A stretch of 64,000 nt of DNA from Gammaproteobacteria bacterium (GCA_029862005.1 JAOTYD010000008.1:4472-68471); one strand, 5' to 3'. Counted from the stretch's first letter, positions 21,916 through 63,660 are shown. The notes: generated by a model not told the origin, from the sequence alone. Numbers and translations: made by a program.

Positions 21916-21942
21916 GATAGGGACTCCAGAAACCTGCTTGGT

Positions 21943-37443: not shown

Positions 37444-37446
37444 GGA

Positions 37447-37767
37447 TTACTCCGGTTCGGGGACGTAGAGTATCAATCCATCCAGCGCCGACGAGGCAAC
37501 TATCTGGCAGCTCAGACGGCTATTATCCTCTCGTTCGACATCAGTCATTTCGAGCATGGTGTCTTCGATATCGTCGATCTCTCCTGTTTTCTCGAACCAT
37601 TCGGGATCGACAAACACGTGGCAGGTGGCGCAGGAAAGACAACCGCCACATTCGCCCTCGATGTGCGGAACGTTGTTCGCCGTCGCAGCTTCCATCAGGT
37701 TCAAGCCGTCTTTTACATCAGCGCTGATTTCGCTGCCATCTTCCATTTTCCAGGTGATATTGGCCAT
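37447..37767 (-). CDS. [2Fe-2S] ferredoxin, adrenodoxin/putidaredoxin type
   Basis: CGGCLSCATCH ... C cluster ligands; 106 aa. Starts 4 nt upstream of the reductase. Confidence 0.85.
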   Translation of the reverse strand: MANITWKMEDGSEISADVKDGLNLMEAATANNVPHIEGECGGCLSCATCHVFVDPEWFEKTGEIDDIEDTMLEMTDVEREDNSRLSCQIVASSALDGLILYVPEPE

Positions 37768-37854
37768 GTTTTACTGCATATCGTGGATATCAAAGTCGCG
37801 TAATGTATCCTTTTTTGATGTCGATGTCTTTTCGAATTTTGCGCATCTGCGCGG

Positions 37855-39312
37855 TTACAGAGCCGACTCGTTCACAGTTTGCCGTATCAGGGACCATAGC
37901 TTTTCAACATGCTCACGGGTGGTAGCTTCAACTCCGATCGAAACCCTTACCATCCAGCGATCGTCGAGCATCGATGGGCTCATAAAGGCTACCCCGGATT
38001 GATTGATGGCGTTAACCCAGGCGAGGGTATGGCGATCCAGCGCTTCACCTTCGATGCCGGGTGGTTCATGGCGAATGCAGACGGTTTGCAATTTGACCGG
38101 TGCCAGCACGTGCCAGTCTTCGGTGGCGGCAACCGTTTCGGCAAACCAGCGCGCGTTTTCGAGATCGCGTCGCAGGCGGGTGCGAATCGATTCGATACCA
38201 TCGATGCCGAGGTGATACCAGAGTTTGAGCGCGCGGAACCGACGCCCCAGCGGTATACCCCAGTCGCGGTATTGCCGGACTTCGTCATCGACGTTCGAAC
38301 GCAGGTAACTGGGATTGGTCGACATGACCCGCACCAGGTGCTGCACGTCACGCACGTACATCAGCGAGCAGTCGAGGATCGTTCCCATCCACTTATGAGG
38401 ATTCCAGGAGATGGAATCGGCTGCTTCTACACCCTCCCAGAGGTGACGGCATTCGGGTAACAGCATCGCACTGCCGGCCATGGCGGCGTCGACGTGTAAC
38501 CAGATATCGTATCCCGCCGTTATCTCGGCGATTTCGGCAACCGGGTCGAAAGCGGTGACACTGGTTGAGCCCACCGAAGCGACCACGGCCACCGGTAGGT
38601 ATCCGTTGGCGATGTCGGTTACAACTTGTTCCGCGAGACTCTCTGCTTGCATGGAGTGACTTTCGGGGTCCATTGCGACCATGCGCAGGTTGTCGCTACC
38701 GATTCCGGCCAGTAGCGCCGCCTTGACCACCGACGAGTGTGCCTCGGCAGTGGTATAGATCACAAGCGGTTTGTCAGCACCCTGCAGCCCTCCACGATTC
38801 TGCGCGTAGTTGCTGGCTCGTTCACGCGCCAGTAACAGTGAAGTCAGGCATGAAGTCGACGCGGTATCATGAATGCATCCCTCCCAGTTTTCGGAGAGCC
38901 CGGTGAGCTGGCGCATCCAGTCACAGACGACTTCCTCGACTTCGGTCAATGATGGGCAGCTTTCCCAGGAAATACCCAGCGCCCCAAGACCCGAACTCGC
39001 GATATCACCCAACACCGAGGCTAGTGCTGCGTTGGAGGGAAACCAGCCATAATGCATCGGGTGTTGTACCAGCGTGATTCCCGGCAATACACGCTGTTCC
39101 AGTTCACGCAGCAGTTGCTCGGGTGCCAACGGTGCTTCAGGTGCACTGGCGGGAAAGCTACGCCTGATGTTGCCGGGTTCAACCTGGGCTCGAACCGGCC
39201 GCTGCTCCAGGTTCGTACGGTAGTCGGCAATCCAGTCGATCAACTCGTGGCCGGCGTGGCGAAATTCTTCGGGTGTCATAAGTTTACTCGAATCGCTGTA
39301 GAAGGGTTTCAA
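37855..39312 (-). CDS. Group II PLP-dependent (aromatic) amino acid decarboxylase
   Basis: SWNPHKW PLP-lysine motif; 485 aa. Confidence 0.85.
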   Translation of the reverse strand: MKPFYSDSSKLMTPEEFRHAGHELIDWIADYRTNLEQRPVRAQVEPGNIRRSFPASAPEAPLAPEQLLRELEQRVLPGITLVQHPMHYGWFPSNAALASVLGDIASSGLGALGISWESCPSLTEVEEVVCDWMRQLTGLSENWEGCIHDTASTSCLTSLLLARERASNYAQNRGGLQGADKPLVIYTTAEAHSSVVKAALLAGIGSDNLRMVAMDPESHSMQAESLAEQVVTDIANGYLPVAVVASVGSTSVTAFDPVAEIAEITAGYDIWLHVDAAMAGSAMLLPECRHLWEGVEAADSISWNPHKWMGTILDCSLMYVRDVQHLVRVMSTNPSYLRSNVDDEVRQYRDWGIPLGRRFRALKLWYHLGIDGIESIRTRLRRDLENARWFAETVAATEDWHVLAPVKLQTVCIRHEPPGIEGEALDRHTLAWVNAINQSGVAFMSPSMLDDRWMVRVSIGVEATTREHVEKLWSLIRQTVNESAL

Positions 39313-49977: not shown

Positions 49978-50733
49978 ATGAGGAAACAATCCACCATGAA
50001 ACGCAGAGGATTCGTCAAGCTGTGTGCGTCAGCGCTCGCCAGCATTACCGCCAGTCCCCAGTTACTGGCCCGGGAGAATCATGTTTATCATCGATACGGC
50101 AAGGTTGCCCTGATCGATCCCAATAGTGGTGAACCGATGCGGGCGGCGTCGCTGAACGTGGGAGAGGCTTACCTGTTCCACTACCCGTTTGTGTCCACGC
50201 CGTGTTTTCTCATAGACCTGGGCAAGTCAGTCACAACCCGAAGTAATCTCAAGACCCGCGACGGCGAGCTCTATCGGTGGCAGGGCGGGTCGGGGCAAAA
50301 AAACTCGGTGGTTGCATTCTCCGCGATTTGTGCGCACAAGATGAGCCACCCGGCACCATCTGTAAGCTTTATCAACTATCGGCATGGAAAAGTCAGGTTT
50401 CGTAACAGCAATGATGAACTCGAACAACGCGCCGGCGTCATATACTGCTGTTCGGAAAACAGCGTGTATGATCCCGCACATGGGGGTCGAGTACTCGGGG
50501 GCCCGGCACCGCAGCCGCTGGCTTCAATTGAGCTGGAATACGACAGGAGTGAAGATATCTTTTACGCTACCGCCACGATTGGCGGCGAAATGTTCGACCG
50601 TTATTTCAGGAATTTCCACGATCGGCTGGTACTGCAACACGGTCGAACCGATATCGATCGGGCATTGACCGGGACCACCGACCTGGTGCGACTCAGGGAT
50701 TACACCGAAAACCAGGTGAGCTGCCAGGCTTGA
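49978..50733 (+). CDS. Tat-exported protein with a degenerate Rieske-like Cys/His pattern
   Basis: Twin-arginine motif KRRGFVKL; CAHKMSH but no canonical second CXXH box. Confidence 0.5.
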   Translation: MRKQSTMKRRGFVKLCASALASITASPQLLARENHVYHRYGKVALIDPNSGEPMRAASLNVGEAYLFHYPFVSTPCFLIDLGKSVTTRSNLKTRDGELYRWQGGSGQKNSVVAFSAICAHKMSHPAPSVSFINYRHGKVRFRNSNDELEQRAGVIYCCSENSVYDPAHGGRVLGGPAPQPLASIELEYDRSEDIFYATATIGGEMFDRYFRNFHDRLVLQHGRTDIDRALTGTTDLVRLRDYTENQVSCQA

Positions 50734-50866
50734 GAAAAAGCGGGACCGAATAAGACTCCTGCCTCCGCGCAAACAAGGCTTCAAAGTAAAATCAAATGCC
50801 TGAATCAAATTTCCGGACGCAATCCGGTGCTGCTACTATTGGCTATTGTTTCCACCTGGTTTAGCG

Positions 50867-52759
50867 ATGGCGGATAAGCGATTATCGGGCAAGCTCGCAG
50901 TGATTCTGCATGCGGATGTCGTGGGATCCACGATGCTGGTGCAACAGGATGAGCAAAAAGCTCACCAGCGCATCCAGGATTCTTTCCAGCGTTTCGGTAA
51001 AACCATTTCAAACTATCATGGCCAGGTTCGTGAACTCCGCGGCGATGCGCTACTGGCCGAGTTCGAACGTGCCTCGGATGCGATCTCCGCGGCGCTGTCT
51101 TTTCAATCAGACCAGGCGAATTACAACGCGCAACTCGATGACGATATCCGCCCACTGGTGCGGGTTGGGATCGCCATGGGTGAGGTCGTGATTGCCGATG
51201 ACACGATCACGGGTGCAGGTGTGGTGTTGGCACAAAGGCTGGAGCAATTGGCGGATCCCGGTGGGTTATGCATAACACCGGCAATCCGTGAAGCGATGCC
51301 GCGGCGCCTGCCGTTCGAGCTTGAGAATATCGGTGAACAGCAATTAAAGGGATTCGATGAGCCCATTGGCGTTTACCGGGTCGTATTGACCCCTGGGGCA
51401 GCGGTCCCATCTCCCGAGCCGGGCCGGAATAGTGACGCTGCGGTGGGCTCGCAAAAGCTCAGAATTGTGGCAACCGCAGTTGTACTGGCTGTTTTTGCTG
51501 CGGCTACCTATGGCTTTGTCACCTGGCAATCAAGGGAACCTGTCATTCCCGAATCCACAGATCAGATTTCATCCGAAAAACCCTCGATAGCGGTTTTACC
51601 TTTCGACAATATGAGCGGTGACCCTGAGCAGGAGTATTTCGCCGATGGAATTACCGAGGATCTGACCACCGATTTGTCGAGAATCTCGGGATTGTTCGTG
51701 GTTGCTCGTAATTCGGCTTTTTCCTACAAGGGCAGATCGGTCGACGTACGTACTGTCGCCCAGGAACTGGGCGTGCGTTATGTTCTCGAAGGCAGCATTC
51801 GACGCGCCGATAACCAGATTCGGATCAATGCGCAGCTGGTTGACGGATCCAATGGCGGTCATATCTGGGCCGAGCGTTTTGATGGCACTATGGCTGATGT
51901 GTTCGCCTTGCAGGACCAGGTCAACCGGAAGATTGTCGCCGCACTCGAGGTCAACTTGACCTCGGCAGATGAAAAAAGATTCGACCATGTCGAGACCAAA
52001 GTTCCGGAGGCTTATGACAGGTTGTTGCTCGGGATCGAGCAGTACAACACCTTTACCCCTGATGCTGTTGTCGAAGCCCGTGAGATTTTCAAACAAGCTG
52101 CGGCTCTCGATCCAAACTACGCGCGGGCCTATGCCAACATCGCGTTAACGCATGCGACAGAAGTCAATTTTTTCTGGTCGAAGGATCGTGAAGGATCCAT
52201 TCGGCTAGGGCTGGAGTTTGCGCGCAAGGCCCTGGAACTGGACGATACTATTCCACAGATATACCTGACGCGAAGCATTCTGTATCTGTCGCAGCGTCAA
52301 CACCAGACCGCGCTCGAGTCGGCCCAACGCACGATTGAGGTCCACCCGAATTATGTTGATGGATATGCAACGCTGGCGTTTATTTCGAGCTATTCGGGTA
52401 ACTTCGAAAAAGGGCTCGAAGCACTGGACCAAGCGATACGCATCAATCCGCAGGGCACCGGCGTTTATCTCGCCGTCAAAGGCCGCATTCTTTTTTTAAT
52501 GGAAAAATACGATGACGCCGTACCGGCACTCGAGGAAGCGCTTGATCGAAATCCGGGATTCGACCGGATTCATTTGCATCTCGCAGCAGTCTACGCTCAG
52601 CTCGGACGAATCGAGGACGCCGAATGGTCGGTGGAAGAGGCGCTCGCAATCAATCCGGATATCACGCTGGCGAAGGAACGCCGCGAGAGTATCTATCGGC
52701 GCGAAAGCGATCTTGAGCATTACGTGGATGCCTTGCGTAAGGCCGGGGTACCCGAGTGA
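50867..52759 (+). CDS. Class III adenylate/guanylate cyclase with a TM segment and C-terminal TPR domain
   Basis: N-terminal CHD domain (LAVILHADVVGST, RVGIAMGEVV), one TM helix, then TPR repeats. Confidence 0.75.
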   Translation: MADKRLSGKLAVILHADVVGSTMLVQQDEQKAHQRIQDSFQRFGKTISNYHGQVRELRGDALLAEFERASDAISAALSFQSDQANYNAQLDDDIRPLVRVGIAMGEVVIADDTITGAGVVLAQRLEQLADPGGLCITPAIREAMPRRLPFELENIGEQQLKGFDEPIGVYRVVLTPGAAVPSPEPGRNSDAAVGSQKLRIVATAVVLAVFAAATYGFVTWQSREPVIPESTDQISSEKPSIAVLPFDNMSGDPEQEYFADGITEDLTTDLSRISGLFVVARNSAFSYKGRSVDVRTVAQELGVRYVLEGSIRRADNQIRINAQLVDGSNGGHIWAERFDGTMADVFALQDQVNRKIVAALEVNLTSADEKRFDHVETKVPEAYDRLLLGIEQYNTFTPDAVVEAREIFKQAAALDPNYARAYANIALTHATEVNFFWSKDREGSIRLGLEFARKALELDDTIPQIYLTRSILYLSQRQHQTALESAQRTIEVHPNYVDGYATLAFISSYSGNFEKGLEALDQAIRINPQGTGVYLAVKGRILFLMEKYDDAVPALEEALDRNPGFDRIHLHLAAVYAQLGRIEDAEWSVEEALAINPDITLAKERRESIYRRESDLEHYVDALRKAGVPE

Positions 52760-52820: not shown

Positions 52821-53075
52821 TCAACCGCCGGTGACCGGGGGAAAGAAGGCGATTTCGTCGGTGTTGCTGATTTCTGCAGTCGGTTCGCTCATTTCCTGGT
52901 TGATTGCCACCAGTATTCGGGTGTCACCGTTAAACTCGCTATCAAAGGGCTCTCCACGTGCCCGCAATAGCGCAACCAGGTCGGCAACTGTCTTGCAATC
53001 CGCTGATAAATTTATTTCCTCTGATTTAATGCCCAGCGATTCGGCCAGTCGCGCAAAATAGAGAATATCAGCCAT
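52821..53075 (-). CDS. moaD: Molybdopterin synthase sulfur-carrier subunit MoaD
   Basis: 84 aa with a C-terminal Gly-Gly. Confidence 0.75.
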   Translation of the reverse strand: MADILYFARLAESLGIKSEEINLSADCKTVADLVALLRARGEPFDSEFNGDTRILVAINQEMSEPTAEISNTDEIAFFPPVTGG

Positions 53076-53080
53076 TACCC

Positions 53081-54349
53081 TTAAAGGGACCAGTCGAAGA
53101 ACTGGATATTGACTTCGTCACCGGCCTCGACGCCGTCGTTTTCATCGGGCAGTACGATAAAGCAGTTGGCGCGGCTCATCGACGTCAGGATACCGGATCC
53201 CTGTTTGCCGGTTTTGCTGACCTGCCATTCGTTATTGTCGTCCAGCATGGCGATACCGCGCTGGAACTCGTAGCGCCCCGGCTTCTTGCGCATCGCATCG
53301 AGTGCACGCGCGCGAAACAATGCCGGGCGTCTGGATTTGGCGCCGGCCAGAGCATCGATCGCGGGCACCACGAACTGGCTGAAGGTCACCATTACCGCGA
53401 CCGGGTTACCGGGTAAACCCATGAAAATGCTGGCGTCGATCTGGCCAAAGGTCAACGGTCGCCCCGGCTTGATCGCGATTTTCCAGAACTCGGTCGTACC
53501 GAGTTCTGACAGTGCCGGCCTGATGTAGTCGGCCTCCCCGACCGAAACACCACCGGTGCTGATGATCAAATCAGCCCGCTTCGATGCATTATCGAGCACT
53601 TCGCGCATGGCTGTGGGTTCATCCTTGACCACGCCGAGATCGATGATGTCGACTGCCATGGGCGATAGCATGCCGTGCAGGCTATAGCGATTACTGTCAT
53701 AAATCTTGCCCGGCTCGAGCTTTTCACCAATTGAGACCAGCTCGTCGCCGGTGGAGAAAAATGCGACTACGGGTTTGCGCTTGACCTGGAGTTGACCAAT
53801 GCCCAGCGATGCCAGCACGCCGATATCGGCCGGGCTGAGTCTGACGCCAGCGTCAATCACGATTTCACCGCGGGCAACGTCCTCGCCGGCCAGGCGGATA
53901 TTTTCACCGACCCGATGATCAGAATCGACCCGAATCCTGCCGGTTTCGGTAATTTCCACCTGCTCCTGCATGATCACCGCGTCGGTACCCTCGGGTACCA
54001 GTGCCCCGGTCATGATGCGCACGCATTGTCCTGGGCCACAGTCACCACTAAACGGGGTGCCCGCAAAAGCCGTGCCGACTTCTTCAAGCTCGGTAATTTC
54101 CCCTTTTGACAGGCTGTCGATGGCAACCGCAACCCCGTCCATTGCTGAATTAGGCAGCGGCGGAACGTCATGCGGGGACTTGACGGCTTCATTGTTTACG
54201 CGGTCAAGGCACTCACGAATCGGCAGGCGCTCGCAGGCGTGGACCGGTAGTACGCGTTCCTGGATTTTGTTTAACGCATCGCCGAGGCTGATCGATTCCG
54301 GGTCGAAGGGATCTGCACAGCTGGGCGCGGAAGAAATTTTGTTGCTCAT
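53081..54349 (-). CDS. moeA: Molybdopterin molybdenum/tungsten transferase MoeA
   Basis: MoeA N and C domains; ISTGGVSVGEADY motif. Confidence 0.85.
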   Translation of the reverse strand: MSNKISSAPSCADPFDPESISLGDALNKIQERVLPVHACERLPIRECLDRVNNEAVKSPHDVPPLPNSAMDGVAVAIDSLSKGEITELEEVGTAFAGTPFSGDCGPGQCVRIMTGALVPEGTDAVIMQEQVEITETGRIRVDSDHRVGENIRLAGEDVARGEIVIDAGVRLSPADIGVLASLGIGQLQVKRKPVVAFFSTGDELVSIGEKLEPGKIYDSNRYSLHGMLSPMAVDIIDLGVVKDEPTAMREVLDNASKRADLIISTGGVSVGEADYIRPALSELGTTEFWKIAIKPGRPLTFGQIDASIFMGLPGNPVAVMVTFSQFVVPAIDALAGAKSRRPALFRARALDAMRKKPGRYEFQRGIAMLDDNNEWQVSKTGKQGSGILTSMSRANCFIVLPDENDGVEAGDEVNIQFFDWSL

Positions 54350-54591
54350 GAAACGGAGTGTAGTCGCTTAGGAGCGTAATTGAGGCACAGACAGGGTAAA
54401 AATGGTAGGGGTAACACCATTTTTTTGTGGCTGCGGCCAATCCTTTTAGTAAAGTGGATTAAATTTAGGGCTTGGGGCTATAAAAGCAGCGGCGAGAGTG
54501 GTATTTTTACGCCTTGACCGAAAGCGTTCCAGCGGGATCAAAGAGCCGTGTTCCGGCGGGAATGACAATAACGACACAATCGGAGGATACA

Positions 54592-55071
54592 ATGCAGAAA
54601 TCCCTTAACATCGATCCCGGGAAGTGTACCGGCTGTCTCCAGTGCGAAATGGCCTGCTCCTACGAGCACACGGGGACCTTTAATCCATCTCGATCGTACA
54701 TCAAGGTATTCACTTTCCACCAGGAAGGGAGGTTTGCACCCTATACCTGCACCCAGTGCGATGAAGCCTGGTGTATGCGGGCCTGTCCGGTTGACGCCAT
54801 CAGCGTCGATATGGCCACCGGTGCCAAGGTAATCTCCGATGACAAGTGTGTCGGCTGCAAGGTCTGCACCATCGCCTGCCCGTTCGGTACCGTCAACTAC
54901 TCGCAAGCGACCGGCAAGGTCGTTAAATGCGACCTCTGTGGCGGTGACCCGCAGTGTGCGGCAGCCTGTCCTACCGGTGCGATCACCTATGTCGACGCAG
55001 ACTGGACCGGTTACGATCGCATGCTCGCCTCGGCAGCCAAGAGTCTGCCATCCGCCGAAGCAACCGCTTAA
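54592..55071 (+). CDS. aorA: Electron-transfer subunit with four [4Fe-4S] clusters (AorA-like)
   Basis: Four CxxCxxCxxxCP motifs. GGAGGA Shine-Dalgarno upstream of the start. Confidence 0.8.
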   Translation: MQKSLNIDPGKCTGCLQCEMACSYEHTGTFNPSRSYIKVFTFHQEGRFAPYTCTQCDEAWCMRACPVDAISVDMATGAKVISDDKCVGCKVCTIACPFGTVNYSQATGKVVKCDLCGGDPQCAAACPTGAITYVDADWTGYDRMLASAAKSLPSAEATA

Positions 55072-55089
55072 CAATGGGGGTAACGAATC

Positions 55090-56940
55090 ATGTCATGGAC
55101 AAGAAAAATCCTGAGGGTAGATCTCTCTAAAGGTACCTGTACTTCCGAACCGCTCAACATGGATTGGGCGAAACTATACCTGGGTCAGCGCGGACTGGCG
55201 TCAAAATACCTGACCGATGAAGTCGATCCGAAATGTGACGCACTCGGACCCGACAATAAACTGATCATGGCCACCGGTCCGCTGACCGGCACCATGGCTT
55301 CAACCGGTGGACGCTACTCCGTCATCTGCAAGAGCCCGCTGACCGGCGCTATCGCCTGCTCGAATTCTGGCGGTTTTTTCGGCGCGGAATTGAAATTTGC
55401 TGGCTGGGATATGATCATCTTCGAGGGCAAATCGGATAAGCCGGTCTACCTGCTGATCCAGGACGATAAGGCCGAGCTGCGCTCTGGAGACGGGATCTGG
55501 GGCAAGTCCGCCTGGGAAACCGATGATATCCTGCACCAGACCCACCAGGACCCGCAACTGCGAGTCGCCTGTGTCGGGCGTACTGCTGAACACGGTTGTC
55601 TTTATGCGGCGGTCATGAACGACAAGCACCGCGCTGCCGGACGCTCCGGTGTCGGTACCGTCATGGCTTCGAAAAACCTGAAGGCTGTCGCGGTACGCGG
55701 TACCGGTGGAATTGGTAACGTCCACGACGCCAAGGCCTTCATGGCGGCGACCAGTGACGGCAAGGCGATACTTGCCGAGAACGCGGTTACCGGCCAGGGA
55801 CTGCCGGCCTATGGCACCCAGGTGCTGATGAACGTCATCAACGGAGTAGGCGCCTTGCCGGCCCGCAATATGCGCGATGTCGGTTTCGAAGGCGCGGAGC
55901 ATATCTCTGCCGAGGCCATGGCCGAACCGCGCAAGAGCGACGGCAAGCCCAACCTGACCACGAATGGCGCCTGCTTCAGTTGCACCATCGCCTGTGGTCG
56001 CATCTCGACCGTCGATCCGACGCATTTTTCGGTCAAGGATAAACCGCAGTACCAGGGGGCATCCGGTGGTCTCGAGTACGAAGCCGCCTGGGCGCTGGGT
56101 GCCGATACCGGTGTCGATGACCTCGATGCGCTGACCTATGTGAATTTCCTTTGCAACGAGGATGGCATGGATCCGATTACCTACGGCGCAACCGTGGCCG
56201 CCGCGATGGAAATGTTCGAGGACGGGGTTATCACGACCAAGGAAACCGGGGGTATCGAACTCAAGTTCGGCGGCGCCGAGGCGTTTGTTGCGATTACCGA
56301 GCAATTTGTCACCGGCGAGGGATTTGCGAAAGACCTGGGATTAGGCTCGAAGCGACTGTGCGAAAAGTACAAGCGTCCGGAATTGTCGATGACGGTCAAG
56401 GGCCAGGAATTCCCAGCCTACGATCCGCGCGGTATCCAGGGCATCGGTCTCGCTTATGCCACTTCAAACCGGGGCGCCTGCCATCTCAGGGGTTACACCA
56501 TAGCCTCCGAAGTGCTGGGTATTCCGGTCAAGACCGAGATGAACGATACCGACGGCAAGGCCGAGCTGGTCAAGGCGTTCCAGGACGCGACCGCACTGGT
56601 CGATTCCGCTGGATTGTGCGTCTTCACGACTTTTGCCTGGGGCATGGATAATATCGCGCCGCAGATCGACGCGGCCTGTGAGGGCGACTGGAGCGTCGAA
56701 AACTGCCTCGAGACCGGTGAGCGCATCTGGAACATGGAGCGCCTGTTCAACGAGGCCGCCGGCTTTACCGCCGATGACGACACGTTGCCCAAGCGCCTGC
56801 TCAAGGAGATCATCAAGAGTGGCCCGACCGAGGGCCAGGTTAATCGCCTCGGTGAAATGCTGCCCAAGTACTACGAGGCCAGGGGCTGGACCGCCGACGG
56901 CAAGATCCCGGACGAAACCCGGCAACGTTTATCATTGTAA
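55090..56940 (+). CDS. aorB: Tungsten-containing aldehyde:ferredoxin oxidoreductase, catalytic subunit (AOR family)
   Basis: AOR_N start MSWTRKILRVDLSKG; full-length AFOR_N + AFOR_C at 616 aa. Confidence 0.9.
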   Translation: MSWTRKILRVDLSKGTCTSEPLNMDWAKLYLGQRGLASKYLTDEVDPKCDALGPDNKLIMATGPLTGTMASTGGRYSVICKSPLTGAIACSNSGGFFGAELKFAGWDMIIFEGKSDKPVYLLIQDDKAELRSGDGIWGKSAWETDDILHQTHQDPQLRVACVGRTAEHGCLYAAVMNDKHRAAGRSGVGTVMASKNLKAVAVRGTGGIGNVHDAKAFMAATSDGKAILAENAVTGQGLPAYGTQVLMNVINGVGALPARNMRDVGFEGAEHISAEAMAEPRKSDGKPNLTTNGACFSCTIACGRISTVDPTHFSVKDKPQYQGASGGLEYEAAWALGADTGVDDLDALTYVNFLCNEDGMDPITYGATVAAAMEMFEDGVITTKETGGIELKFGGAEAFVAITEQFVTGEGFAKDLGLGSKRLCEKYKRPELSMTVKGQEFPAYDPRGIQGIGLAYATSNRGACHLRGYTIASEVLGIPVKTEMNDTDGKAELVKAFQDATALVDSAGLCVFTTFAWGMDNIAPQIDAACEGDWSVENCLETGERIWNMERLFNEAAGFTADDDTLPKRLLKEIIKSGPTEGQVNRLGEMLPKYYEARGWTADGKIPDETRQRLSL

Positions 56941-56991
56941 CCTCGAACCCCTCGCCGCAAGGCGGGGGGTTTTTCCTTAAAGAGCACTGAC

Positions 56992-58242
56992 ATGCAACAT
57001 ATCATCATAGGTGCAGGGCCCGCGGGCGTGGTAGCAGCGGAAACCCTGCGTAAAACAGACCCTGAAGCACAAATCACGATTATCGGCGATGAGCCGGAAC
57101 CGCCGTACTCGCGCATGGCGATCCCGTATTATCTCATTAGAAATATCGATGAAACCGGAACCTACCTGCGTGATCCCGGGACGCATTTCGGCGCCCTGAA
57201 TATCGAAGTCGTGCAGCAGCGCGTCGACAAGATCGACGCCAAGGCGAAATCGGTAACACTGGCCGATGGTAGCTCACACGCTTACGACAAGCTATTGATT
57301 GCCACGGGTTCACATCCAATCAGTCCGCCGATACCGGGGCTCGATTTGCCGCAGGTACATTCCTGCTGGACACTCGAAGACGCGCGCAACATCGTCAAGC
57401 TGGCGCAGTCCGGGTCCAACGTGGTGCTCATCGGCGCCGGCTTTATCGGCTGTATTATCCTTGAGGCACTGGTCAAGTGCGACGTGCATCTTGCCGTGGT
57501 AGAAATGGGTAACCGCATGGTACCCCGCATGCTGGACGAAAAGGCCGGCGGATTGCTTGAATCCTGGTGCAAGAACCAGGGCATCGATGTGCATACCTCC
57601 TGCAGCGTTGACGGGATTGCCGAAGCCGGGGACGAGGTCGAAGTGTCGTTAAGCGATGGCAGCAAGCTGAGTGCCGCGCTGGTGATTACCGCGACCGGGG
57701 TCAAGGCGAATACCGACCTGGTGGAAGATACCGATATCAATATCGACCAGGGCATACTGGTGAACCGGCGCATGCAGACCAGTAATCCGGACGTCTACGC
57801 GGCGGGCGATGTTGCGCAAGGCGTAGATTTTTCTACCGGTAACTTCGAGGTACAGGCGATCCAGCCTACCGCGACCGATCACGGACGTATTGCCGCGCTC
57901 AACATGGCGGGACAGGGCGATGAACATCATGGTACGCTGAACATGAATGTCCTCGATACCGTGGGTTTGGTTTCGTGCTCGTTTGGTCTGTGGATGGGGG
58001 TTGATGGCGGTGAAAGCGCCGAGCTCTATAATCCCGACGAATTTCAGTATATCAACCTGCAGTTCGATGGCGATCACCTGGTTGGCGCCAGCAGCGTCGG
58101 CAAGACCCAGCACGTCGGTGTGCTGCGAGGATTGATCGAGTCGAAGATTCACCTGGGTGAATGGAAAGCCCGATTGATGCAGGATCCGACCGCGATCATG
58201 GAAGCCTATGTCGGCTGTACCCAGGAACTCGGGTATGCCTGA
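56992..58242 (+). CDS. aorC: FAD-containing NAD(P)-binding oxidoreductase subunit (AorC-like)
   Basis: IIGAGPAGVVAAETL and a second Rossmann fold (VVLIGAGFIGCI). Confidence 0.75.
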   Translation: MQHIIIGAGPAGVVAAETLRKTDPEAQITIIGDEPEPPYSRMAIPYYLIRNIDETGTYLRDPGTHFGALNIEVVQQRVDKIDAKAKSVTLADGSSHAYDKLLIATGSHPISPPIPGLDLPQVHSCWTLEDARNIVKLAQSGSNVVLIGAGFIGCIILEALVKCDVHLAVVEMGNRMVPRMLDEKAGGLLESWCKNQGIDVHTSCSVDGIAEAGDEVEVSLSDGSKLSAALVITATGVKANTDLVEDTDINIDQGILVNRRMQTSNPDVYAAGDVAQGVDFSTGNFEVQAIQPTATDHGRIAALNMAGQGDEHHGTLNMNVLDTVGLVSCSFGLWMGVDGGESAELYNPDEFQYINLQFDGDHLVGASSVGKTQHVGVLRGLIESKIHLGEWKARLMQDPTAIMEAYVGCTQELGYA

Positions 58243-58493
58243 TGCAGATCAGCATCGAGTTTTATGCATCGTTGATGAAATACCTGCCGCCGGGTAAGAG
58301 CCGTTTCAGACGCGAAATAAAGGTCGACCAGGGGCTCAAGCTCGCCCGCCTGATTGAACAGTTTCATATCTCGCCCGAGGAGGCACATCTGGTGCTCGTT
58401 AACGGGTTATTCGTCTGTGGCGAAGATCGCGCGGGGTGCGAACTGGTTGAAGGCGACGTCGTCTCGATCTGGCCGCCAGTTGCGGGTGGCTAG
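58242..58493 (+). CDS. MoaD/ThiS-like sulfur-carrier protein dedicated to the AOR cluster (AorD-like)
   Basis: 83 aa ending in GG. ATG overlaps the aorC stop (TGATG). Confidence 0.65.
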   Translation: MQISIEFYASLMKYLPPGKSRFRREIKVDQGLKLARLIEQFHISPEEAHLVLVNGLFVCGEDRAGCELVEGDVVSIWPPVAGG

Positions 58494-58498
58494 GCAAC

Positions 58499-58813
58499 GT
58501 GCCCGAGTCGACCGTGGTCGAATATGAAATGGGTTACGGCGCTGAAGAATTCGGCAATGTACTCAACGGGCCCTTCAGCGGAGACCAATCAGGATATCTC
58601 TGCAGGCAGATAGAAAGCCATCACTGGGCGCTCGAACAGCCGGGCGCGACATTTGATCTGACCATTAAAGCCATCGAGAAACCGCCGCGCAAACTCGGCC
58701 TGTTCAACCTGCCCGTGCTGGATGTACGTTTTACTTTTACCGATACCGAGACCCCTTTGCGCGATCAATTTTTCCATCGCTTTCACCAGTATTTTCACAA
58801 GGGTGGCGGATGA
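58499..58813 (+). CDS. Hypothetical protein, translationally coupled to moeB
   Basis: No recognisable motif. GTG start; its stop overlaps the moeB ATG (ATGA). Confidence 0.4.
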   Translation: MPESTVVEYEMGYGAEEFGNVLNGPFSGDQSGYLCRQIESHHWALEQPGATFDLTIKAIEKPPRKLGLFNLPVLDVRFTFTDTETPLRDQFFHRFHQYFHKGGG

Positions 58814-59553
58814 ACCCGGCGCAGAAAGATCGCTACGCGCGTCATATCCGCCTGTCGCAGATCGGCGAAAAGGGTCAGCAGGCGATCCTCGATGCGAGCG
58901 CACTGATTGTCGGCGTTGGCGGTCTCGGCTCCCCTGCAGCCATGTACCTGGCCGCGGCGGGCATCGGTAAGCTCATTCTGAGCGATTACGATGTCGTCGA
59001 AACCTCGAATCTGCAGCGCCAGATTATTCATAACAATGCTTCGGTGGGAGAAAACAAGGTCGATTCGGGTCGGCAAACCGTGCAGGCGTTGAATCCCGAC
59101 TGCAAAGTCGAAGTGATCGGCTATCAACTCGAAGGCGAAGAATTAAAGCAGGTCATCGAATCGGTCGATATCGTACTCGATTGCACCGACAATTACCCAA
59201 CCCGCTTCGAGATCAATCGCTATTGCGTCGAGACCGACACGCGCCTGGTAATCGGTGCGGCGATCAGGCTCGAGGGTCAGATCATGAATTACCAGCCGGA
59301 TGCCAACAGCTCTTGTTACCAGTGTCTGTACTCGCATGCCTACGGCGCCGAGGAATCCTGTGAGTTTGAAGGCGTACTGGGCCCGGTGGCTGGCCTCATC
59401 GGTACCCTACAGGCCGTGCAAACCCTGCTGATCCTGGCCGGTCAGGGTGAAGGATTGGTTAATCGGTTGTTACTGTTCGATGCCTTCGCGATGCAGTGGC
59501 AATCCGTAACCCTGCCCAAAAACCCGAACTGCCCGGTCTGCAGCAAGAATTGA
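58810..59553 (+). CDS. moeB: Molybdopterin-synthase adenylyltransferase MoeB/ThiF-family E1
   Basis: GVGGLGSPAAMYLAAAGIG nucleotide fold; CxxC ... CPVC zinc motif. Confidence 0.85.
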   Translation: MNPAQKDRYARHIRLSQIGEKGQQAILDASALIVGVGGLGSPAAMYLAAAGIGKLILSDYDVVETSNLQRQIIHNNASVGENKVDSGRQTVQALNPDCKVEVIGYQLEGEELKQVIESVDIVLDCTDNYPTRFEINRYCVETDTRLVIGAAIRLEGQIMNYQPDANSSCYQCLYSHAYGAEESCEFEGVLGPVAGLIGTLQAVQTLLILAGQGEGLVNRLLLFDAFAMQWQSVTLPKNPNCPVCSKN

Positions 59554-59578
59554 TCTTCACCGTTTCGCTTGCAGTTCG

Positions 59579-60112
59579 TTAGGTAGTTTCGGTTGTGGAA
59601 TAGAAATCCACGTAGATGAATTCTGCGATTGCATTGACATCGTTAATATCGAGCACCGGGATTTCAATCTCCGCGGGTGGGTTTGCATCGCAGGCCAGCG
59701 CGATCACGGATGCATCGTTCTGGTAAAGGAAAGGTTTGCCCAGGGTTTCGCGATGCAGTTCTATTTTCGGGAACTGGATGTCCTTGTAACCTTCAACCAG
59801 GATGATGTCGGCGCGCTCGGTATCGAGCATGTCGATGATTTCATGCAATTCCGGTTCATCGGCGGGTTCGTCGAACTCGGTGATGAGCGCCATGCGGGTG
59901 GTCGTGCAGATGACCGTCTGGTCGGCACCGGCCTTGCGCAATTCGTAGCTGTCCTTGCCCGGGAAGTCGAGTTCAAAGTGGTGGTGGGCATGCTTGATCA
60001 CCGAAATCCGCAATTCGCGCGCCTTGAGCAGCGGGATCAGTTGTCGCAACAGCGTGGTTTTGCCGGTTCCGCTGTAGGCGCTAAAGCCGAGAATGGGTAT
60101 CGAGGTGCTCAT
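59579..60112 (-). CDS. mobB: Molybdopterin-guanine dinucleotide biosynthesis adapter MobB
   Basis: Walker A GFSAYSGTGKTTLL. Start at MSTSIPIL overlaps the mobA stop. Confidence 0.8.
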   Translation of the reverse strand: MSTSIPILGFSAYSGTGKTTLLRQLIPLLKARELRISVIKHAHHHFELDFPGKDSYELRKAGADQTVICTTTRMALITEFDEPADEPELHEIIDMLDTERADIILVEGYKDIQFPKIELHRETLGKPFLYQNDASVIALACDANPPAEIEIPVLDINDVNAIAEFIYVDFYSTTETT

Positions 60113-60702
60113 TGCCGGGCCTGCAGCTGTTGCTGATCCGTGGGTGTGTTGATATTGCGAAACATGTCCGCGCAATCCGAGAAATCGGTTTGCACAAAGC
60201 CATGCGAAGCATACCAGCGGTCGATCTTGCGGTCGCCGCTATCGAGAAATTCGAGCAGGCTCGGCCGCAGATCAACCTTGATCAGCGCGTGCACCGGTTG
60301 CAGTCGCTTACCGTCGAAGGCGACGTGGATAGGGGCATTAGTTTGCTCGTGGCTCAGGATAAATCGAGCAACGTAGTCATTTACCAGCAGCGGGCTATCG
60401 CAGGGTAGCGTCACGATATAGTCGCTTGCAACCGCGGCCATGGCGCTGGCAAAGCCGGCCAGCGGACCCTGGTAATCCTCGAGCTGGTCACTGATGACCG
60501 GGTGGCCGAAATTTCGGTAACGATCGTGATTGCGATTTGCATTGATTATAATGTCAACCGACTGCTGTTCGAGATTGTCAATCAGAAGAGATACCAGCGG
60601 CTGACCATTGAACTCGATCAGGCCCTTGTCCTGACCGCCCATGCGCCTGCCCTGACCGCCGGCGAGAATCACCGCGGTGATGTCTCTGGTGCCTATGCTC
60701 AT
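60109..60702 (-). CDS. mobA: Molybdenum cofactor guanylyltransferase MobA
   Basis: AVILAGGQGRRMGG nucleotidyltransferase motif. Confidence 0.85.
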   Translation of the reverse strand: MSIGTRDITAVILAGGQGRRMGGQDKGLIEFNGQPLVSLLIDNLEQQSVDIIINANRNHDRYRNFGHPVISDQLEDYQGPLAGFASAMAAVASDYIVTLPCDSPLLVNDYVARFILSHEQTNAPIHVAFDGKRLQPVHALIKVDLRPSLLEFLDSGDRKIDRWYASHGFVQTDFSDCADMFRNINTPTDQQQLQARQ

Positions 60703-60947
60703 CGCATTTTGGACTGACGTACCGAATCCAGTTCAACCACTGTAGAAATGGAGATTGCTGTTTCCTCGCCAGTTACCGGAAAATTCATGATCAGAAAAGG
60801 CCTGGTGCGTAAAATGGGGTTTGTCCTGCTGTGTTTGAAATCGAGCTGCAGTGTACCAATCCGCGTCGGGTTGCGTCGAATTTTCGTTGGGGTGGTCAGG
60901 TAAAACGGTTAAACTGCCAGCTCCAGCTTAATCAATACGAGGTAGTA

Positions 60948-61148
60948 ATGGACGAAGAAGCCCTGAACATGTCGATACGCAAATTTCTGAAGAAAGTCGG
61001 TATTACATCGCAGCGCGAAATCGAACGTGCAATAGATATCGCCAATACCGAGGGACGCCTAGACGGCAATCCGGTCAGGGTCAAGATCACGCTGGAATGC
61101 GATCTGATCGACGACGCCCTGTCGATCGAAGACGAAATCAAGTACTAG
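60948..61148 (+). CDS. Small hypothetical protein (66 aa)
   Basis: Internal ATG with a GGTAGTAATG context. The longer ORF from 60831 lacks a ribosome-binding site. Confidence 0.35.
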   Translation: MDEEALNMSIRKFLKKVGITSQREIERAIDIANTEGRLDGNPVRVKITLECDLIDDALSIEDEIKY

Positions 61149-61163
61149 CAGCGGGCGCGAACC

Positions 61164-61685
61164 ATGAGTCAGGATCGAGAATTCGTGCCCTTGAGGATAG
61201 CGGTATTGACCGTGTCTGACTCGCGCGACGAGGCAACCGACAAGTCGGGCGCCTTACTGGTTAAAATGCTTGGCGCATCGGGCCACCCGCTCGCCGAGAA
61301 AGCCATCGTTCCGGACAACAAGTATCGCATTCGTGAAGTGGTCTCGCGCTGGATTGCCGATGAATCGCTGCCGGTTGTTTTAACCACCGGGGGTACTGGT
61401 GTTACCGGCCGTGACGGTACCCCCGAAGCGGTCACGCCGTTGCTCGATAAGGTTATCGACGGTTTTGGTGAAACCTTTCGCAGCCTTTCCTACCAGACTA
61501 TCGGCACCTCGACCCTGCAATCGCGTGCGATAGCGGGCGTGGCCAACGGTACCTATATATTTTGCCTGCCGGGTTCTGCGGGAGCCTGCAAGGATGCCTG
61601 GACGCAGTTGATCAGTAGCCAGCTTGATTACCGAACTCGTCCCTGTAACCTGGTTGAGTTGATGCCGCGATTACGCGAAACCTAG
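61164..61685 (+). CDS. moaB: Molybdenum cofactor biosynthesis protein MoaB/MogA family
   Basis: LTTGGTGVTGRD motif. Confidence 0.8.
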   Translation: MSQDREFVPLRIAVLTVSDSRDEATDKSGALLVKMLGASGHPLAEKAIVPDNKYRIREVVSRWIADESLPVVLTTGGTGVTGRDGTPEAVTPLLDKVIDGFGETFRSLSYQTIGTSTLQSRAIAGVANGTYIFCLPGSAGACKDAWTQLISSQLDYRTRPCNLVELMPRLRET

Positions 61686-61733
61686 AATTCAGATACTTCG
61701 GTTTCATCGTGGTCAGTTGTCTGCTAGTATCGG

Positions 61734-62597
61734 CTAGCTTGCGCTCTTGCGTACCGGCCGGGCTGGCGGAATCTCGTCGAACTCGATCAGTTCGCCACCG
61801 TGGTAAACCAGGAAATGCCGACCCTTGGCCCGGGCGATCAGGGTTACCCCGACCTGCTGTGCAATCTCGAGACCCATGGCAGTAATCCCGGAACGCGACA
61901 GTAAAACCGGTATCTCCATTAACGCGACCTTGATGACCATTTCCGATGTCAGGCGCCCGGTAGTGTAAAAGAGCTTGTCATGTCCCTGCAGGTCGTTGAG
62001 CCACATGTAACCCGCGATCGCATCGACCGCATTGTGCCGGCCGACATCCTCGATAAACTGTTCGATACCCTGGGATTCACTGCACAGGGCGCAACCGTGT
62101 ACGGCACCGGCATTCTTGTAAATTTCGTTGAATTCATTGAGCTGGTTGAGCAGCGCGTAAATCGCAGATTGCCTGAGTGCCGGCGGTTGCAGCGATATCT
62201 TGTCGATGTCCTCCATCAAGTCGCCAAATACTGTTCCCTGGCCGCATCCGGTGGTGACCGTTTTACGACCGAGCTTGGCGTCGAGATCTTCGATACCATC
62301 GTGCGTGGTAATTGCGACCGCCTCGGCCTCCCAGTCAACCTGGATCGCCTTGATCGCCTCGATATCATCGATCATCCGCTGGTTACGCAGCCAACCCAGG
62401 ATCAGTAACTCGGGGTGATTGCCGAGCGTCATCAGGGTAACGATTTCACGCTTGTCGAGATATATCGTGAGCGCGCGTTCCACGGCTATCGCGCCTTCCA
62501 CCGGCTCGTTGTATTCGTTGCAGGCGATAACATTGGCCGTGGCCTTGAGGCCGGCATTACTGAGTTGGGGAAGGCGTCGCTGCGGGACGGAAGTCAT
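61734..62597 (-). CDS. fdhD: Sulfurtransferase FdhD (formate dehydrogenase accessory protein)
   Basis: FdhD/NarQ fold blocks (GRHNAVD, conserved Cys in TGCGQG). Confidence 0.85.
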   Translation of the reverse strand: MTSVPQRRLPQLSNAGLKATANVIACNEYNEPVEGAIAVERALTIYLDKREIVTLMTLGNHPELLILGWLRNQRMIDDIEAIKAIQVDWEAEAVAITTHDGIEDLDAKLGRKTVTTGCGQGTVFGDLMEDIDKISLQPPALRQSAIYALLNQLNEFNEIYKNAGAVHGCALCSESQGIEQFIEDVGRHNAVDAIAGYMWLNDLQGHDKLFYTTGRLTSEMVIKVALMEIPVLLSRSGITAMGLEIAQQVGVTLIARAKGRHFLVYHGGELIEFDEIPPARPVRKSAS

Positions 62598-62622
62598 GGG
62601 ATAGGCCCTTGGGTAAAAGGTA

Positions 62623-63660
62623 CTAACCGCCGGTGAGATTCATGTGGCGCAGCAGTATTTCCTGGGAATTGAGGTTGAAATCATGTCCCTTCGGCTTGAT
62701 TTGCATCGAGTCGATGATAGCCTGCTCGAGCGCTTCCGGATTACCGGGATTGGCCCGAATAACATGGCGCAGATCAAGCGAATGCTCCTGCCCCAGGCAT
62801 AACAGCAGGCGCCCCTCTGCAGTCACACGCACGCGATTGCAGGATTCGCAGAAGTTATGGCTGTGCGGCGAAATAAAGCCAACCCGGGTATTGTCTTGTT
62901 GGGTGAGCTGATAATAGCGAGACGGGCCTGCAGTAGTCATTGTGCTGGGTACGATCTCGAAGTGTTGTTCGAGATCTTCGAGAATCTGGTCGCTAGAATA
63001 ATAGGCAACGGCACGGTCATGATGGTCGTTCTGGCCGAGTGGCATTTCCTCGATAAAGCTGATGTCGATGCCGCGATCGATACAATAGTTTACCAGGTCG
63101 AGAATTTCGTCATGGTTGTGGTTTCTCAGTACCACGGTATTTATCTTGATCTGATCGAAATTGCAGGCGATTGCCGCGTCGATGCCATCGAGTGTCTTTT
63201 TGAGTTCGCCAACCCGCGTCATTTCACGGAAGCGTTCCGGGCGTAGCGTATCCAGGCTGACATTAATGCGCGTCACACCGGCGTCCTTTAAAGGGCGCGC
63301 ATACTTCTCGAGCTGGGTTGCATTGGTGGTCAGCGTCAGGTCACGCAGGCCTTCGCTGGCACCCAGGTTGTTGAACAATTGCATAATATTTCTTCGCACC
63401 AGTGGCTCGCCACCCGTGATACGAATCTTGTCCACGCCGAGTTTGATAAAGGCCCTGCCCACGCTTTCCATTTCTTCGAGCGTCAACAACTGTGTGCGCG
63501 GCACGAATTTCATCTTTTCCGGCATGCAGTAAACACAGCGCAGGTCACAGCGGTCAGTAACCGACAGACGCACGTAACTGACCGTGCGCCCGTAGCGGTC
63601 GATGAGCTGGTTCTGTGGAGTTGTCTCGGCCATGGGACGAGCTATTCTAGCAACGATCAC
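62623..63660 (-). CDS. moaA: GTP 3',8-cyclase MoaA (radical SAM)
   Basis: CDLRCVYCMP radical-SAM cluster motif and a C-terminal second cluster (CESCNRVR). Confidence 0.9.
   Translation of the reverse strand: MIVARIARPMAETTPQNQLIDRYGRTVSYVRLSVTDRCDLRCVYCMPEKMKFVPRTQLLTLEEMESVGRAFIKLGVDKIRITGGEPLVRRNIMQLFNNLGASEGLRDLTLTTNATQLEKYARPLKDAGVTRINVSLDTLRPERFREMTRVGELKKTLDGIDAAIACNFDQIKINTVVLRNHNHDEILDLVNYCIDRGIDISFIEEMPLGQNDHHDRAVAYYSSDQILEDLEQHFEIVPSTMTTAGPSRYYQLTQQDNTRVGFISPHSHNFCESCNRVRVTAEGRLLLCLGQEHSLDLRHVIRANPGNPEALEQAIIDSMQIKPKGHDFNLNSQEILLRHMNLTGG

Follow-up and report, generated by a model that had tools for sequence, protein, structure and literature searches.

The 64-kb window analyzed here, the whole stretch of DNA under study, comes from an uncultured marine-type gammaproteobacterial metagenome-assembled genome and carries what is best explained, with a probability of about 80%, as a tungsten aldehyde oxidoreductase (AOR) operon of the Aromatoleum aromaticum type, aorABCDE-moeB, whose 104-aa gene would be aorE and whose small genes would have accessory roles. 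The six genes aorA-aorB-aorC-aorD-aorE-moeB form an operon inserted into a general Mo/W cofactor biosynthesis cluster, with the following features (coordinates within the window):

52821..53075, minus strand: moaD, canonical molybdopterin synthase sulfur carrier, 84 aa, C-terminal GG (Pfam ThiS 5.8e-16; NCBIfam TIGR01682, 76.3 bits versus a cut-off of 66.15)
53081..54349, minus strand: moeA, molybdopterin metal-insertion enzyme (Pfam MoeA_N, MoCF_biosynth, MoeA_C; NCBIfam NF007960, 544 bits versus a cut-off of 440)
54592..55071, plus strand: aorA, electron-transfer subunit with four [4Fe-4S] motifs, 159 aa (Fer4 families; 8C0Z chain C)
55090..56940, plus strand: aorB, tungsten-bis-metallopterin catalytic subunit, 616 aa (AFOR_N and AFOR_C; 8C0Z chain A)
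56992..58242, plus strand: aorC, FAD/NAD subunit, 416 aa (Pyr_redox_2 5.4e-59; 8C0Z chain E)
58242..58493, plus strand: aorD, AOR-linked MoaD-like sulfur carrier, 83 aa, C-terminal IWPPVAGG (Pfam ThiS)
58499..58813, plus strand: aorE, 104-aa accessory protein, predicted TBP-like fold, C-terminal (R/K)GGG
58810..59553, plus strand: moeB, MoaD-adenylating E1-like enzyme (Pfam ThiF 2.1e-72; NCBIfam NF004281, 282.6 bits versus a cut-off of 266)
59579..60112, minus strand: mobB (Pfam MobB 1.1e-46)
60109..60702, minus strand: mobA, GMP attachment for bis-MGD cofactors (Pfam NTP_transf_3 2e-36)
60740..60847, no strand: empty site, occupied by tupCBA-like tungstate transporter genes in four related islands (blastn colinearity with relative L004)
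60948..61148, plus strand: small ORF, DUF6494, 66 aa, position conserved among relatives (Pfam DUF6494 6.6e-23)
61164..61685, plus strand: moaB (NCBIfam TIGR02667, 259 bits versus a cut-off of 222)
61734..62597, minus strand: fdhD, sulfurtransferase for the formate dehydrogenase cofactor (Pfam FdhD-NarQ 1.4e-73)
62623..63633, minus strand: moaA, radical-SAM first step of pterin synthesis (Pfam Radical_SAM and Mob_synth_C)

A sequence-only reading of this DNA had named the genes from moeA to moaA, and the Pfam and NCBIfam searches found all of them where it had placed them and with the functions it had assigned. Its gene set therefore stands, but the order "moeA, moaD" does not, as both genes are encoded on the minus strand, diverge from the aor genes and follow each other as moaD, moeA along the plus strand. 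The ATGA overlap of the 104-aa gene with moeB that it had reported, 4 nt long, is read directly in the sequence. The aorC and aorD genes overlap by 1 nt (TGATG), and 5 nt separate aorD from aorE; the genes are tightly coupled.

The assignment of AorABC to the A. aromaticum subclass, with a MoaD-like gene of its own, had been proposed before and is borne out by comparisons with solved proteins, in which the 8C0Z chains are by far the best matches of all three subunits. AorA, whose ORF has an alternative start as early as position 54514, contains 16 cysteines in four CxxCxxC...C motifs and matches 8C0Z chain C (AorA) best among PDB entries (3.8e-78), with an alignment that begins at residue 1 and extends through the C-terminal DADWTG...AAK region, corresponding to the filament helix. 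For AorC, the best match is 8C0Z chain E (2.2e-129), the next one reaching only 5.6e-45. AorB scores 957 bits against 8C0Z chain A, 681 against 9MQX, 578 against the Pyrococcus furiosus AOR (1AOR), 228 against FOR and 158 against WOR5, and is 67% identical to A. aromaticum AorB in a pairwise alignment; it is much closer to the bacterial three-subunit branch than to archaeal AOR. The cluster ligands and catalytic residues are all kept: the ligands of the proximal [4Fe-4S] cluster FS0 (C295, C298, C302, and C510), the pterin-phosphate arginine R75, and E331, Y444, and H465, proposed for catalysis, are conserved relative to A. aromaticum, for whose AOR the counterparts of these cluster-ligand and catalytic residues have been named (PMC10413684). 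AorABC is thus classed by homology as a probable three-subunit tungsten AOR coupled to NAD and ferredoxin/viologen, a class within which sequence cannot tell W from Mo. By homology with the A. aromaticum enzyme, aldehydes would be oxidized at the W-bis-metallopterin center of AorB, and electrons would pass from its [4Fe-4S] cluster through the four AorA clusters to FAD in AorC and finally to NAD+. A link to the neighboring amine and aminotransferase genes, also put forward in the sequence-only reading, is speculative.

Two small genes lie downstream of aorC. AorD scores 31.5 bits against Pfam ThiS (cut-off 22.5), ends in a free Gly-Gly (PPVAGG), has archaeal MoaD/SAMP-type proteins as its nearest solved relatives and follows aorC in nearly all loci examined; it is probably a ThiS-family, MoaD-type sulfur carrier. 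The 104-aa gene had been called unknown, a label that no longer applies, since by position and family it corresponds to aorE, which takes fifth place in the published aorABCDE operon (PMC6365974, PMC9295118); the assignment is a probable one, based on operon position and on the family in close Aromatoleum relatives rather than on a direct alignment to the A. aromaticum AorE (WP_041646407). Across 71 informative loci, defined as AorB loci with enough downstream sequence, a homologue of ~90-105 aa with an (R/K)GGG end follows aorD in 62, among them those of Thauera, Rhodocyclaceae, and Sedimenticola. The order aorC-aorD-aorE seen here recurs in 60 of the 71, while two more have aorD-aorE with aorC unrecognized. 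Five loci lack aorE, three more also lack aorD, and in one neither aorC nor aorD/aorE was found. Since aorD is the last gene in some aor operons, AorE is not an absolute requirement, and aorE is best described as a widespread accessory gene. It is followed by moeB in 12 loci and by moaA in 8, and 40 of the 62 aorE loci have none of the searched cofactor-biosynthesis genes directly downstream.

Pfam and NCBIfam searches with the AorE protein of the window returned no match, including to ThiS and DUF1952. The only invariant feature across 63 distinct AorE sequences is the (R/K)GGG C-terminus, and among 9,955 ORFs examined, 65 of the 69 that end in GGG are AorE. In the AF2 model, the protein has a beta-alpha-beta4-alpha arrangement with a disordered tail, and a structural comparison ranks KA1, Aha1, and Bet v 1-type domains highest, with no beta-grasp proteins among these top matches; a TBP-like fold is predicted. 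The 2019 description of AorE as a MoaD/ThiS-type carrier was rejected, given that there is no ThiS match, the model is not beta-grasp and only the glycine terminus is MoaD-like. A possible relative is the DUF1952 C-terminal domain (PF09189) of the Thermus thermophilus HB8 "MoaD related protein" 1V8C, although the resemblance is weak by sequence: the AorE family profile aligns with residues 125-168, with an identical RGGG end, at a marginal E-value of 0.79, and one of 49 family members matches DUF1952 (8.9e-4, 19.5 bits) below the gathering cut-off of 22. The N-terminal domain of 1V8C, a MoaD beta-grasp (PMC1796856), was not detected in the AorD profile search. The arrangement of this domain and the AorE-like end mirrors the order aorD-aorE, with the difference that 1V8C is one fused chain and the window has two genes.

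How these proteins might work together is suggested in part by published expression data. Both aorD and aorE have been named as putative W-cofactor maturation factors (PMC6365974), and an expression plasmid to which aorDE had been added gave a specific activity of 16 instead of 4.5 U/mg and a P content of 8.9 instead of 5.2, while W did not rise (PMC9295118, Table 1), consistent with a function in supplying or loading the pterin. In the working model that we favor, AorD would act as a MoaD-type sulfur carrier, adenylated by the co-translated MoeB and then thiocarboxylated to provide dithiolene sulfur for the pterin that AorB is to receive, and AorE would be its partner in the supply or loading step, with the flexible, invariant (R/K)GGG tail as the functional element.

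The same features have been weighed for other roles of AorE. Possible, if clearly less probable than the favored model, is that AorE serves as an enzyme-specific chaperone of apo-AorB, analogous to TorD, NarJ, or XdhC, and keeps the apo-enzyme, or the completed W-bis-pterin cofactor, ready for insertion, with no sulfur chemistry involved. Operon linkage of aorE to the structural genes is strict, purified AOR does not contain the protein (PMC6365974), binding of ligands or client proteins is common among TBP-like and Bet v 1/Aha1-like folds, and the improved activity upon aorDE co-expression would agree with such a role; however, it leaves unexplained the invariant GGG terminus, the MoaD-domain fusion in Thermus and why moeB or moaA, and not aorB, is the recurrent neighbor. 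We consider it unlikely that AorE is itself a C-terminal-glycine carrier, that is, a non-beta-grasp analogue of MoaD/ThiS whose GGG would be adenylated by MoeB and then thiocarboxylated (or conjugated) for sulfur delivery to the tungsten cofactor. Although this would account for a tail that is invariant in 63 of 63 distinct members and disordered in the model, for a moeB that is translationally coupled to aorE here and the next gene in 12 loci, and for the RGGG of the AorE-like domain being the only free C-terminus of 1V8C, E1-like enzymes recognize the beta-grasp body of their substrates and AorE is predicted to be TBP-like, AorD already supplies a canonical GG carrier, and the 40 loci with no searched cofactor gene next to aorE do not favor it. 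Similarly doubtful is the broader idea that AorE represents an unrecognized class of small accessory proteins for W (possibly Mo) cofactor synthesis, with a DUF1952-homologous TBP-like domain, an (R/K)GGG end that is activated by MoeB or docks in place of the MoaD tail, and AorD as obligate partner, fused to it in 1V8C. If true, AorE would be the first non-beta-grasp member of E1-activated C-terminal-glycine carrier systems.

That the aor genes are wired into cofactor biosynthesis genes, as previously noted, is evident from moeA-moaD upstream and mobBA, moaB, fdhD, and moaA downstream. The further proposal, in which the entire island of 11 kb would be devoted to tungsten-cofactor maturation around AOR, is improbable. 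In its favor, aorD, aorE, and moeB are AOR-linked, tupCBA-like genes lie inside the islands of relatives, and other bacteria have MoeA/MobB/FdhD pathways that are selective for tungsten (PMC13197769). However, mobA, mobB, and fdhD serve bis-MGD enzymes and are not needed for the AOR-family cofactor, W-bis-MPT without nucleotide (PMC10413684), and the same island in the close relative L002 contains napDABC, the genes for a Mo-bis-MGD nitrate reductase. In addition, moaD and moeA score as canonical equivalogs, moaC and moaE were looked for and not found in the 64-kb window, and tup is missing from the island of this genome. We therefore regard mobAB, fdhD, moaB, moaA, moeA, and moaD as a general cofactor cluster, not a tungsten-only one. 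With regard to transport, the earlier observation that the window has no tupABC holds, as its ABC systems are of the SBP_bac_1 and SBP_bac_5 types only, its sole binding proteins belong to SBP_bac_1, SBP_bac_5, and SBP_bac_3, and no tungstate/molybdate binding protein of the PBP_like_2 or SBP_bac_11 type (TupABC/ModABC) was identified within the 64 kb; tblastn with the Tup homologues of L002 retrieved generic ATPases only. In four related islands, tupCBA-like genes are found next to mobA, and in L004, blastn colinearity breaks at the equivalent of 60740..60847, where 2.2 kb encode homologues of the L002 TupA, TupB, and ATPase proteins.

At this locus, the aorABCDE operon known from earlier work is well preserved and followed by moeB, and the enzyme class is not, as had been supposed, rare in mesophilic proteobacteria: at least 574 genome contigs match AorB, and the best 80 of these include Alpha-, Beta-, and Gammaproteobacteria and place AorB at 68% identity or more in at least 80 species genomes. 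What is added is modest, namely that AorE is not MoaD-like, with a predicted TBP-like fold and a weak DUF1952 resemblance, and that tupCBA is present in four relatives' islands and missing here. The archaeal P. furiosus AOR (1AOR) has the AFOR_N/AFOR_C catalytic fold and the cofactor-binding residues in common with AorB of the window, but archaeal AOR is a homodimer without AorA or AorC that uses ferredoxin only, whereas the window encodes the bacterial three-subunit type. A neighborhood of AOR, MoaD, MoeB, pyridine-nucleotide oxidoreductase, and ferredoxin was already described as tungsten-cofactor related in 2006 by Iyer, Burroughs and Aravind (PMC1779556), who proposed that the AOR-linked MoaD and MoeB make the pterin for the W-cofactor. 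That gene set matches the window, with MoaD strictly adjacent to AOR and MoeB, MoeA, MoaA, a pyridine-nucleotide disulfide oxidoreductase, and a 4Fe-4S ferredoxin; in the portion of the paper available to us, an aorE-type gene is not named. The closest known system is AorABCDE of A. aromaticum EbN1 (8C0Z; PMC6365974, PMC9295118, PMC10413684), which has the same five-gene order, Fe-S ligands, proposed catalytic residues, and AorA C-terminal helix region, as well as a MoaD-like AorD and a small fifth gene. A. aromaticum is a denitrifying betaproteobacterium and the host of the window an uncultured gammaproteobacterium; unlike in A. aromaticum, moeB is translationally coupled to aorE in the window and the main cofactor gene cluster surrounds the operon.

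All genes that the sequence-only reading had listed for this island are present, as judged by an ORF map together with Pfam and NCBIfam searches. The genes of the aor region, which encodes a predicted tungsten aldehyde oxidoreductase (AOR), are as follows.

52821-53075, minus strand: moaD, divergent from the aor genes
53081-54349, minus strand: moeA, divergent from the aor genes
54592-55071, plus strand: aorA
55090-56940, plus strand: aorB
56992-58242, plus strand: aorC
58242-58493, plus strand: aorD, encoding a MoaD-like protein
58499-58813, plus strand: the 104-aa ORF, putative aorE
58810-59553, plus strand: moeB

Downstream of moeB follow, in order, mobB, mobA, a DUF6494 mini-ORF, moaB, fdhD and moaA. 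One base is common to aorC and aorD (TGATG), the gap between aorD and the 104-aa gene is 5 nt, and the ATGA overlap of the latter with moeB, already reported, can be seen directly in the sequence. Given that the plus-strand genes are closely packed or overlapping, aorABCD, the 104-aa gene and moeB were assigned to one operon. Consensus scans for promoters and terminators gave chance-level results only, and no Rfam family was matched anywhere in the window, hence no Moco riboswitch was assigned.

The 104-aa protein has no match in Pfam or NCBIfam, and its gene had initially been described as unknown. However, close homologues were found by the hundreds in metagenomes, and the representative library contains no fewer than 176 clusters of homologues at 50% identity. 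For a neighborhood survey, 80 AorB loci were taken from species-level genomes and a profile of the protein was iterated over their six-frame ORFs. Besides the window, a homologue was identified in 64 of the 80 loci; where at least 2.6 kb beyond aorB was available it was found in 62 of 71, nearly always right after aorD, and these 62 include loci of Thauera, other Rhodocyclaceae and Sedimenticola selenatireducens. In Aromatoleum aromaticum, the operon is aorABCDE, with aorD and aorE as putative W-cofactor maturation factors, and the purified enzyme contained neither AorD nor AorE (PMC6365974). Based on this published gene order and on the recurrent position after aorD, we infer that the 104-aa gene is aorE, the fifth gene of that operon by position and family. 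When the orthologue from Thauera was searched against proteins, matches came from Thauera and Azoarcus, with no Aromatoleum entry.

Among 63 distinct AorE sequences, the sole invariant feature is a C-terminal (R/K)GGG. A terminal GGG occurs in 69 of the 9,955 ORFs of the loci, and AorE accounts for 65 of the 69. Three independent searches point to one entry, 1V8C, the "MoaD related protein" of Thermus thermophilus. In a Foldseek search with AorE, it ranked third among 350,542 chains, and the AorE family profile aligned with its residues 125-168, both ending in RGGG, with an E-value of 0.79 that is weak alone. In addition, one family member matches the Pfam model DUF1952 (8.9e-4, slightly below the gathering score). 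We take 1V8C to consist of an N-terminal MoaD beta-grasp domain and a C-terminal DUF1952 domain, following SCOP and Pfam, and the profile-matched coordinates agree with the C-terminal placement of the latter. The beta-grasp domain itself has been reported (PMC1796856). AorE is probably related to DUF1952/1V8C and, if this homology is real, 1V8C would be a natural AorD-AorE fusion, which would speak for joint action of the two proteins. The N-terminal domain of 1V8C was not detected with a profile of the AorD family. A protein search for 1V8C matched only one 44-aa fragment, which had no tblastn match in plasmids. Candidate AorD-AorE fusions among the longer AorE-profile matches were merely ORFs over-extended at the N-terminus. 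In the literature searched, neither the AorE fold, nor the invariant tail, nor the relation to DUF1952/1V8C is described.

In published co-expression work, adding aorDE to the expression plasmid increased the specific activity (from 4.5 to 16 U/mg) and the P content (from 5.2 to 8.9) but not the W content (PMC9295118). AorD probably acts as a dedicated MoaD-type carrier, adenylated by the co-translated MoeB, with AorE as its putative partner in pterin supply or loading. We tentatively favor such a partnership in pterin supply, leaving the chemistry of the tail unspecified (probability of about 0.35), and the rise in P content upon adding aorDE fits this role (PMC9295118). That AorE instead serves apo-AorB as a chaperone is only slightly less likely, and it is clearly more doubtful that the GGG tail of AorE is itself activated by MoeB, as in a carrier. 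The tail may also dock into a partner. The weights of these three readings (partner, chaperone and carrier) are rough, with about a fifth falling to none of them. A role as a MoaE substitute was dropped, since fold and size do not fit.

The accessory module beyond aorE differs between lineages. In the sponge symbionts Spongiihabitans (L029:5724-6100 and L031:16207-16590), another MoaD-like gene, whose product ends in IQGG, stands between aorE and moaA. Eight further loci, of which six are from Granulosicoccaceae, have moaA directly after aorE.

The island had also been proposed as a dedicated tungsten-cofactor route, a view which the flanking genes contradict. Both moaD and moeA score above the canonical equivalog cut-offs of NCBIfam, while mobA, mobB and fdhD serve bis-MGD enzymes. 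A close relative (L002) carries napDABC, for periplasmic nitrate reductase, in the same island between moeB and mobB (L002:11171-15035), a position at which these genes are missing in the window, and moaC and moaE were not found within the window. Unlike bis-MGD enzymes, those of the AOR family carry W-bis-MPT, with no nucleotide (PMC10413684). Taken together, the genes on either side of the operon have general roles in cofactor synthesis, and the island is not a tungsten-only route.

As previously stated, no tupABC is present in the window, where no tungstate or molybdate binding protein was found. Four related islands (L002, L004, L006 and L007) have three tupCBA-like genes between mobA and the DUF6494 ORF (L004:16881-19101; L002:18403-20327). 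The first two have TupA and TupB as best NCBIfam models, both under the equivalog cut-offs and with a partial query for TupA. The same site in the window comprises only ~107 bp (60740-60847), and an independent MAG assembly (GCA_029860755.1) agrees with it at 99.99% identity over 12 kb. The tup genes were evidently lost from the island in this lineage; the AOR operon is intact while the adjacent tungstate uptake genes are gone. Related islands keep the DUF6494 ORF (66 aa, 60948-61148, plus strand) in its place between mobA and moaB; in another locus (L037) it adjoins mobB. It may be an unrecognized small component of cofactor gene clusters.

Elsewhere in the window, a 251-aa protein (49978-50733, plus strand) that matches nothing in Pfam has an N-terminus (RRGFVKLCASALA...) of twin-arginine-like type. 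Its gene lies upstream of a TPR/guanylate-cyclase-domain gene (50846-52759), an arrangement kept in L001 and L002, two related loci. A 792-aa multihaem cytochrome (17907-20285, minus strand) combines MtrC/MtrF-like and cytochrome c7-like segments. A candidate second AorC-like flavoprotein (36223-39312, minus strand) is actually a ferredoxin reductase that carries a Reductase_C domain. It adjoins a PLP-dependent decarboxylase and, together with the latter and with a Rieske oxygenase and class III aminotransferase at 20593-23103, makes up the genes earlier referred to as an amine pathway; nothing was found that connects them with AOR.

The enzyme class had been considered rare in mesophilic proteobacteria, but the genome scan confirmed at least 574 AorB relatives, of which the best 80 are 68-96% identical to the window AorB, span Alpha-, Beta- and Gammaproteobacteria, and include many marine symbionts and sediment MAGs. 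With the aorABCDE family already in hundreds of proteobacterial genomes, the presence of this enzyme is unsurprising. AOR reduces acids, as well as NAD+ with H2, and since the enzyme is of biocatalytic interest, the practical value of this operon is that it encodes a natural variant. The remaining interest lies in the role of AorE, as aorDE co-expression already improves recombinant AOR (PMC9295118). Since AorE is predicted to be TBP-like and has AorD as its probable partner and a GGG tail that looks essential, it offers concrete mutants to try for improved heterologous production of tungsten enzymes.

With regard to known systems, a 2006 study had described gene neighborhoods in which AOR is linked with MoaD, MoeB, a pyridine-nucleotide oxidoreductase and a ferredoxin as tungsten-cofactor neighborhoods (PMC1779556). 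The assignment of AorABC to the A. aromaticum subclass holds against the cryo-EM structure of that enzyme (8C0Z). AorB matches chain A over its full length with 957 bits (P. furiosus AOR, 578; FOR, 228; WOR5, 158) and is 67% identical to A. aromaticum AorB. The AorB residues named in PMC10413684 (FS0 ligands Cys295/298/302/509, Arg75, Glu331, Tyr443 and His464) are conserved without exception when the two proteins are aligned, the numbering being shifted by +1 beyond residue 381. AorC matches chain E at 2.2e-129 (next solved protein, 5.6e-45), and AorA, with four ferredoxin motifs and 16 cysteines, matches chain C at 3.8e-78. By these sequence comparisons, the enzyme belongs to the branch of three-subunit AORs from bacteria. 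By homology with A. aromaticum AOR, aldehydes would be oxidized at the W-bis-metallopterin of AorB, and electrons would pass through five [4Fe-4S] clusters to the FAD of AorC and on to NAD+. The AorA alignment also takes in the filament-helix segment at the C-terminus.
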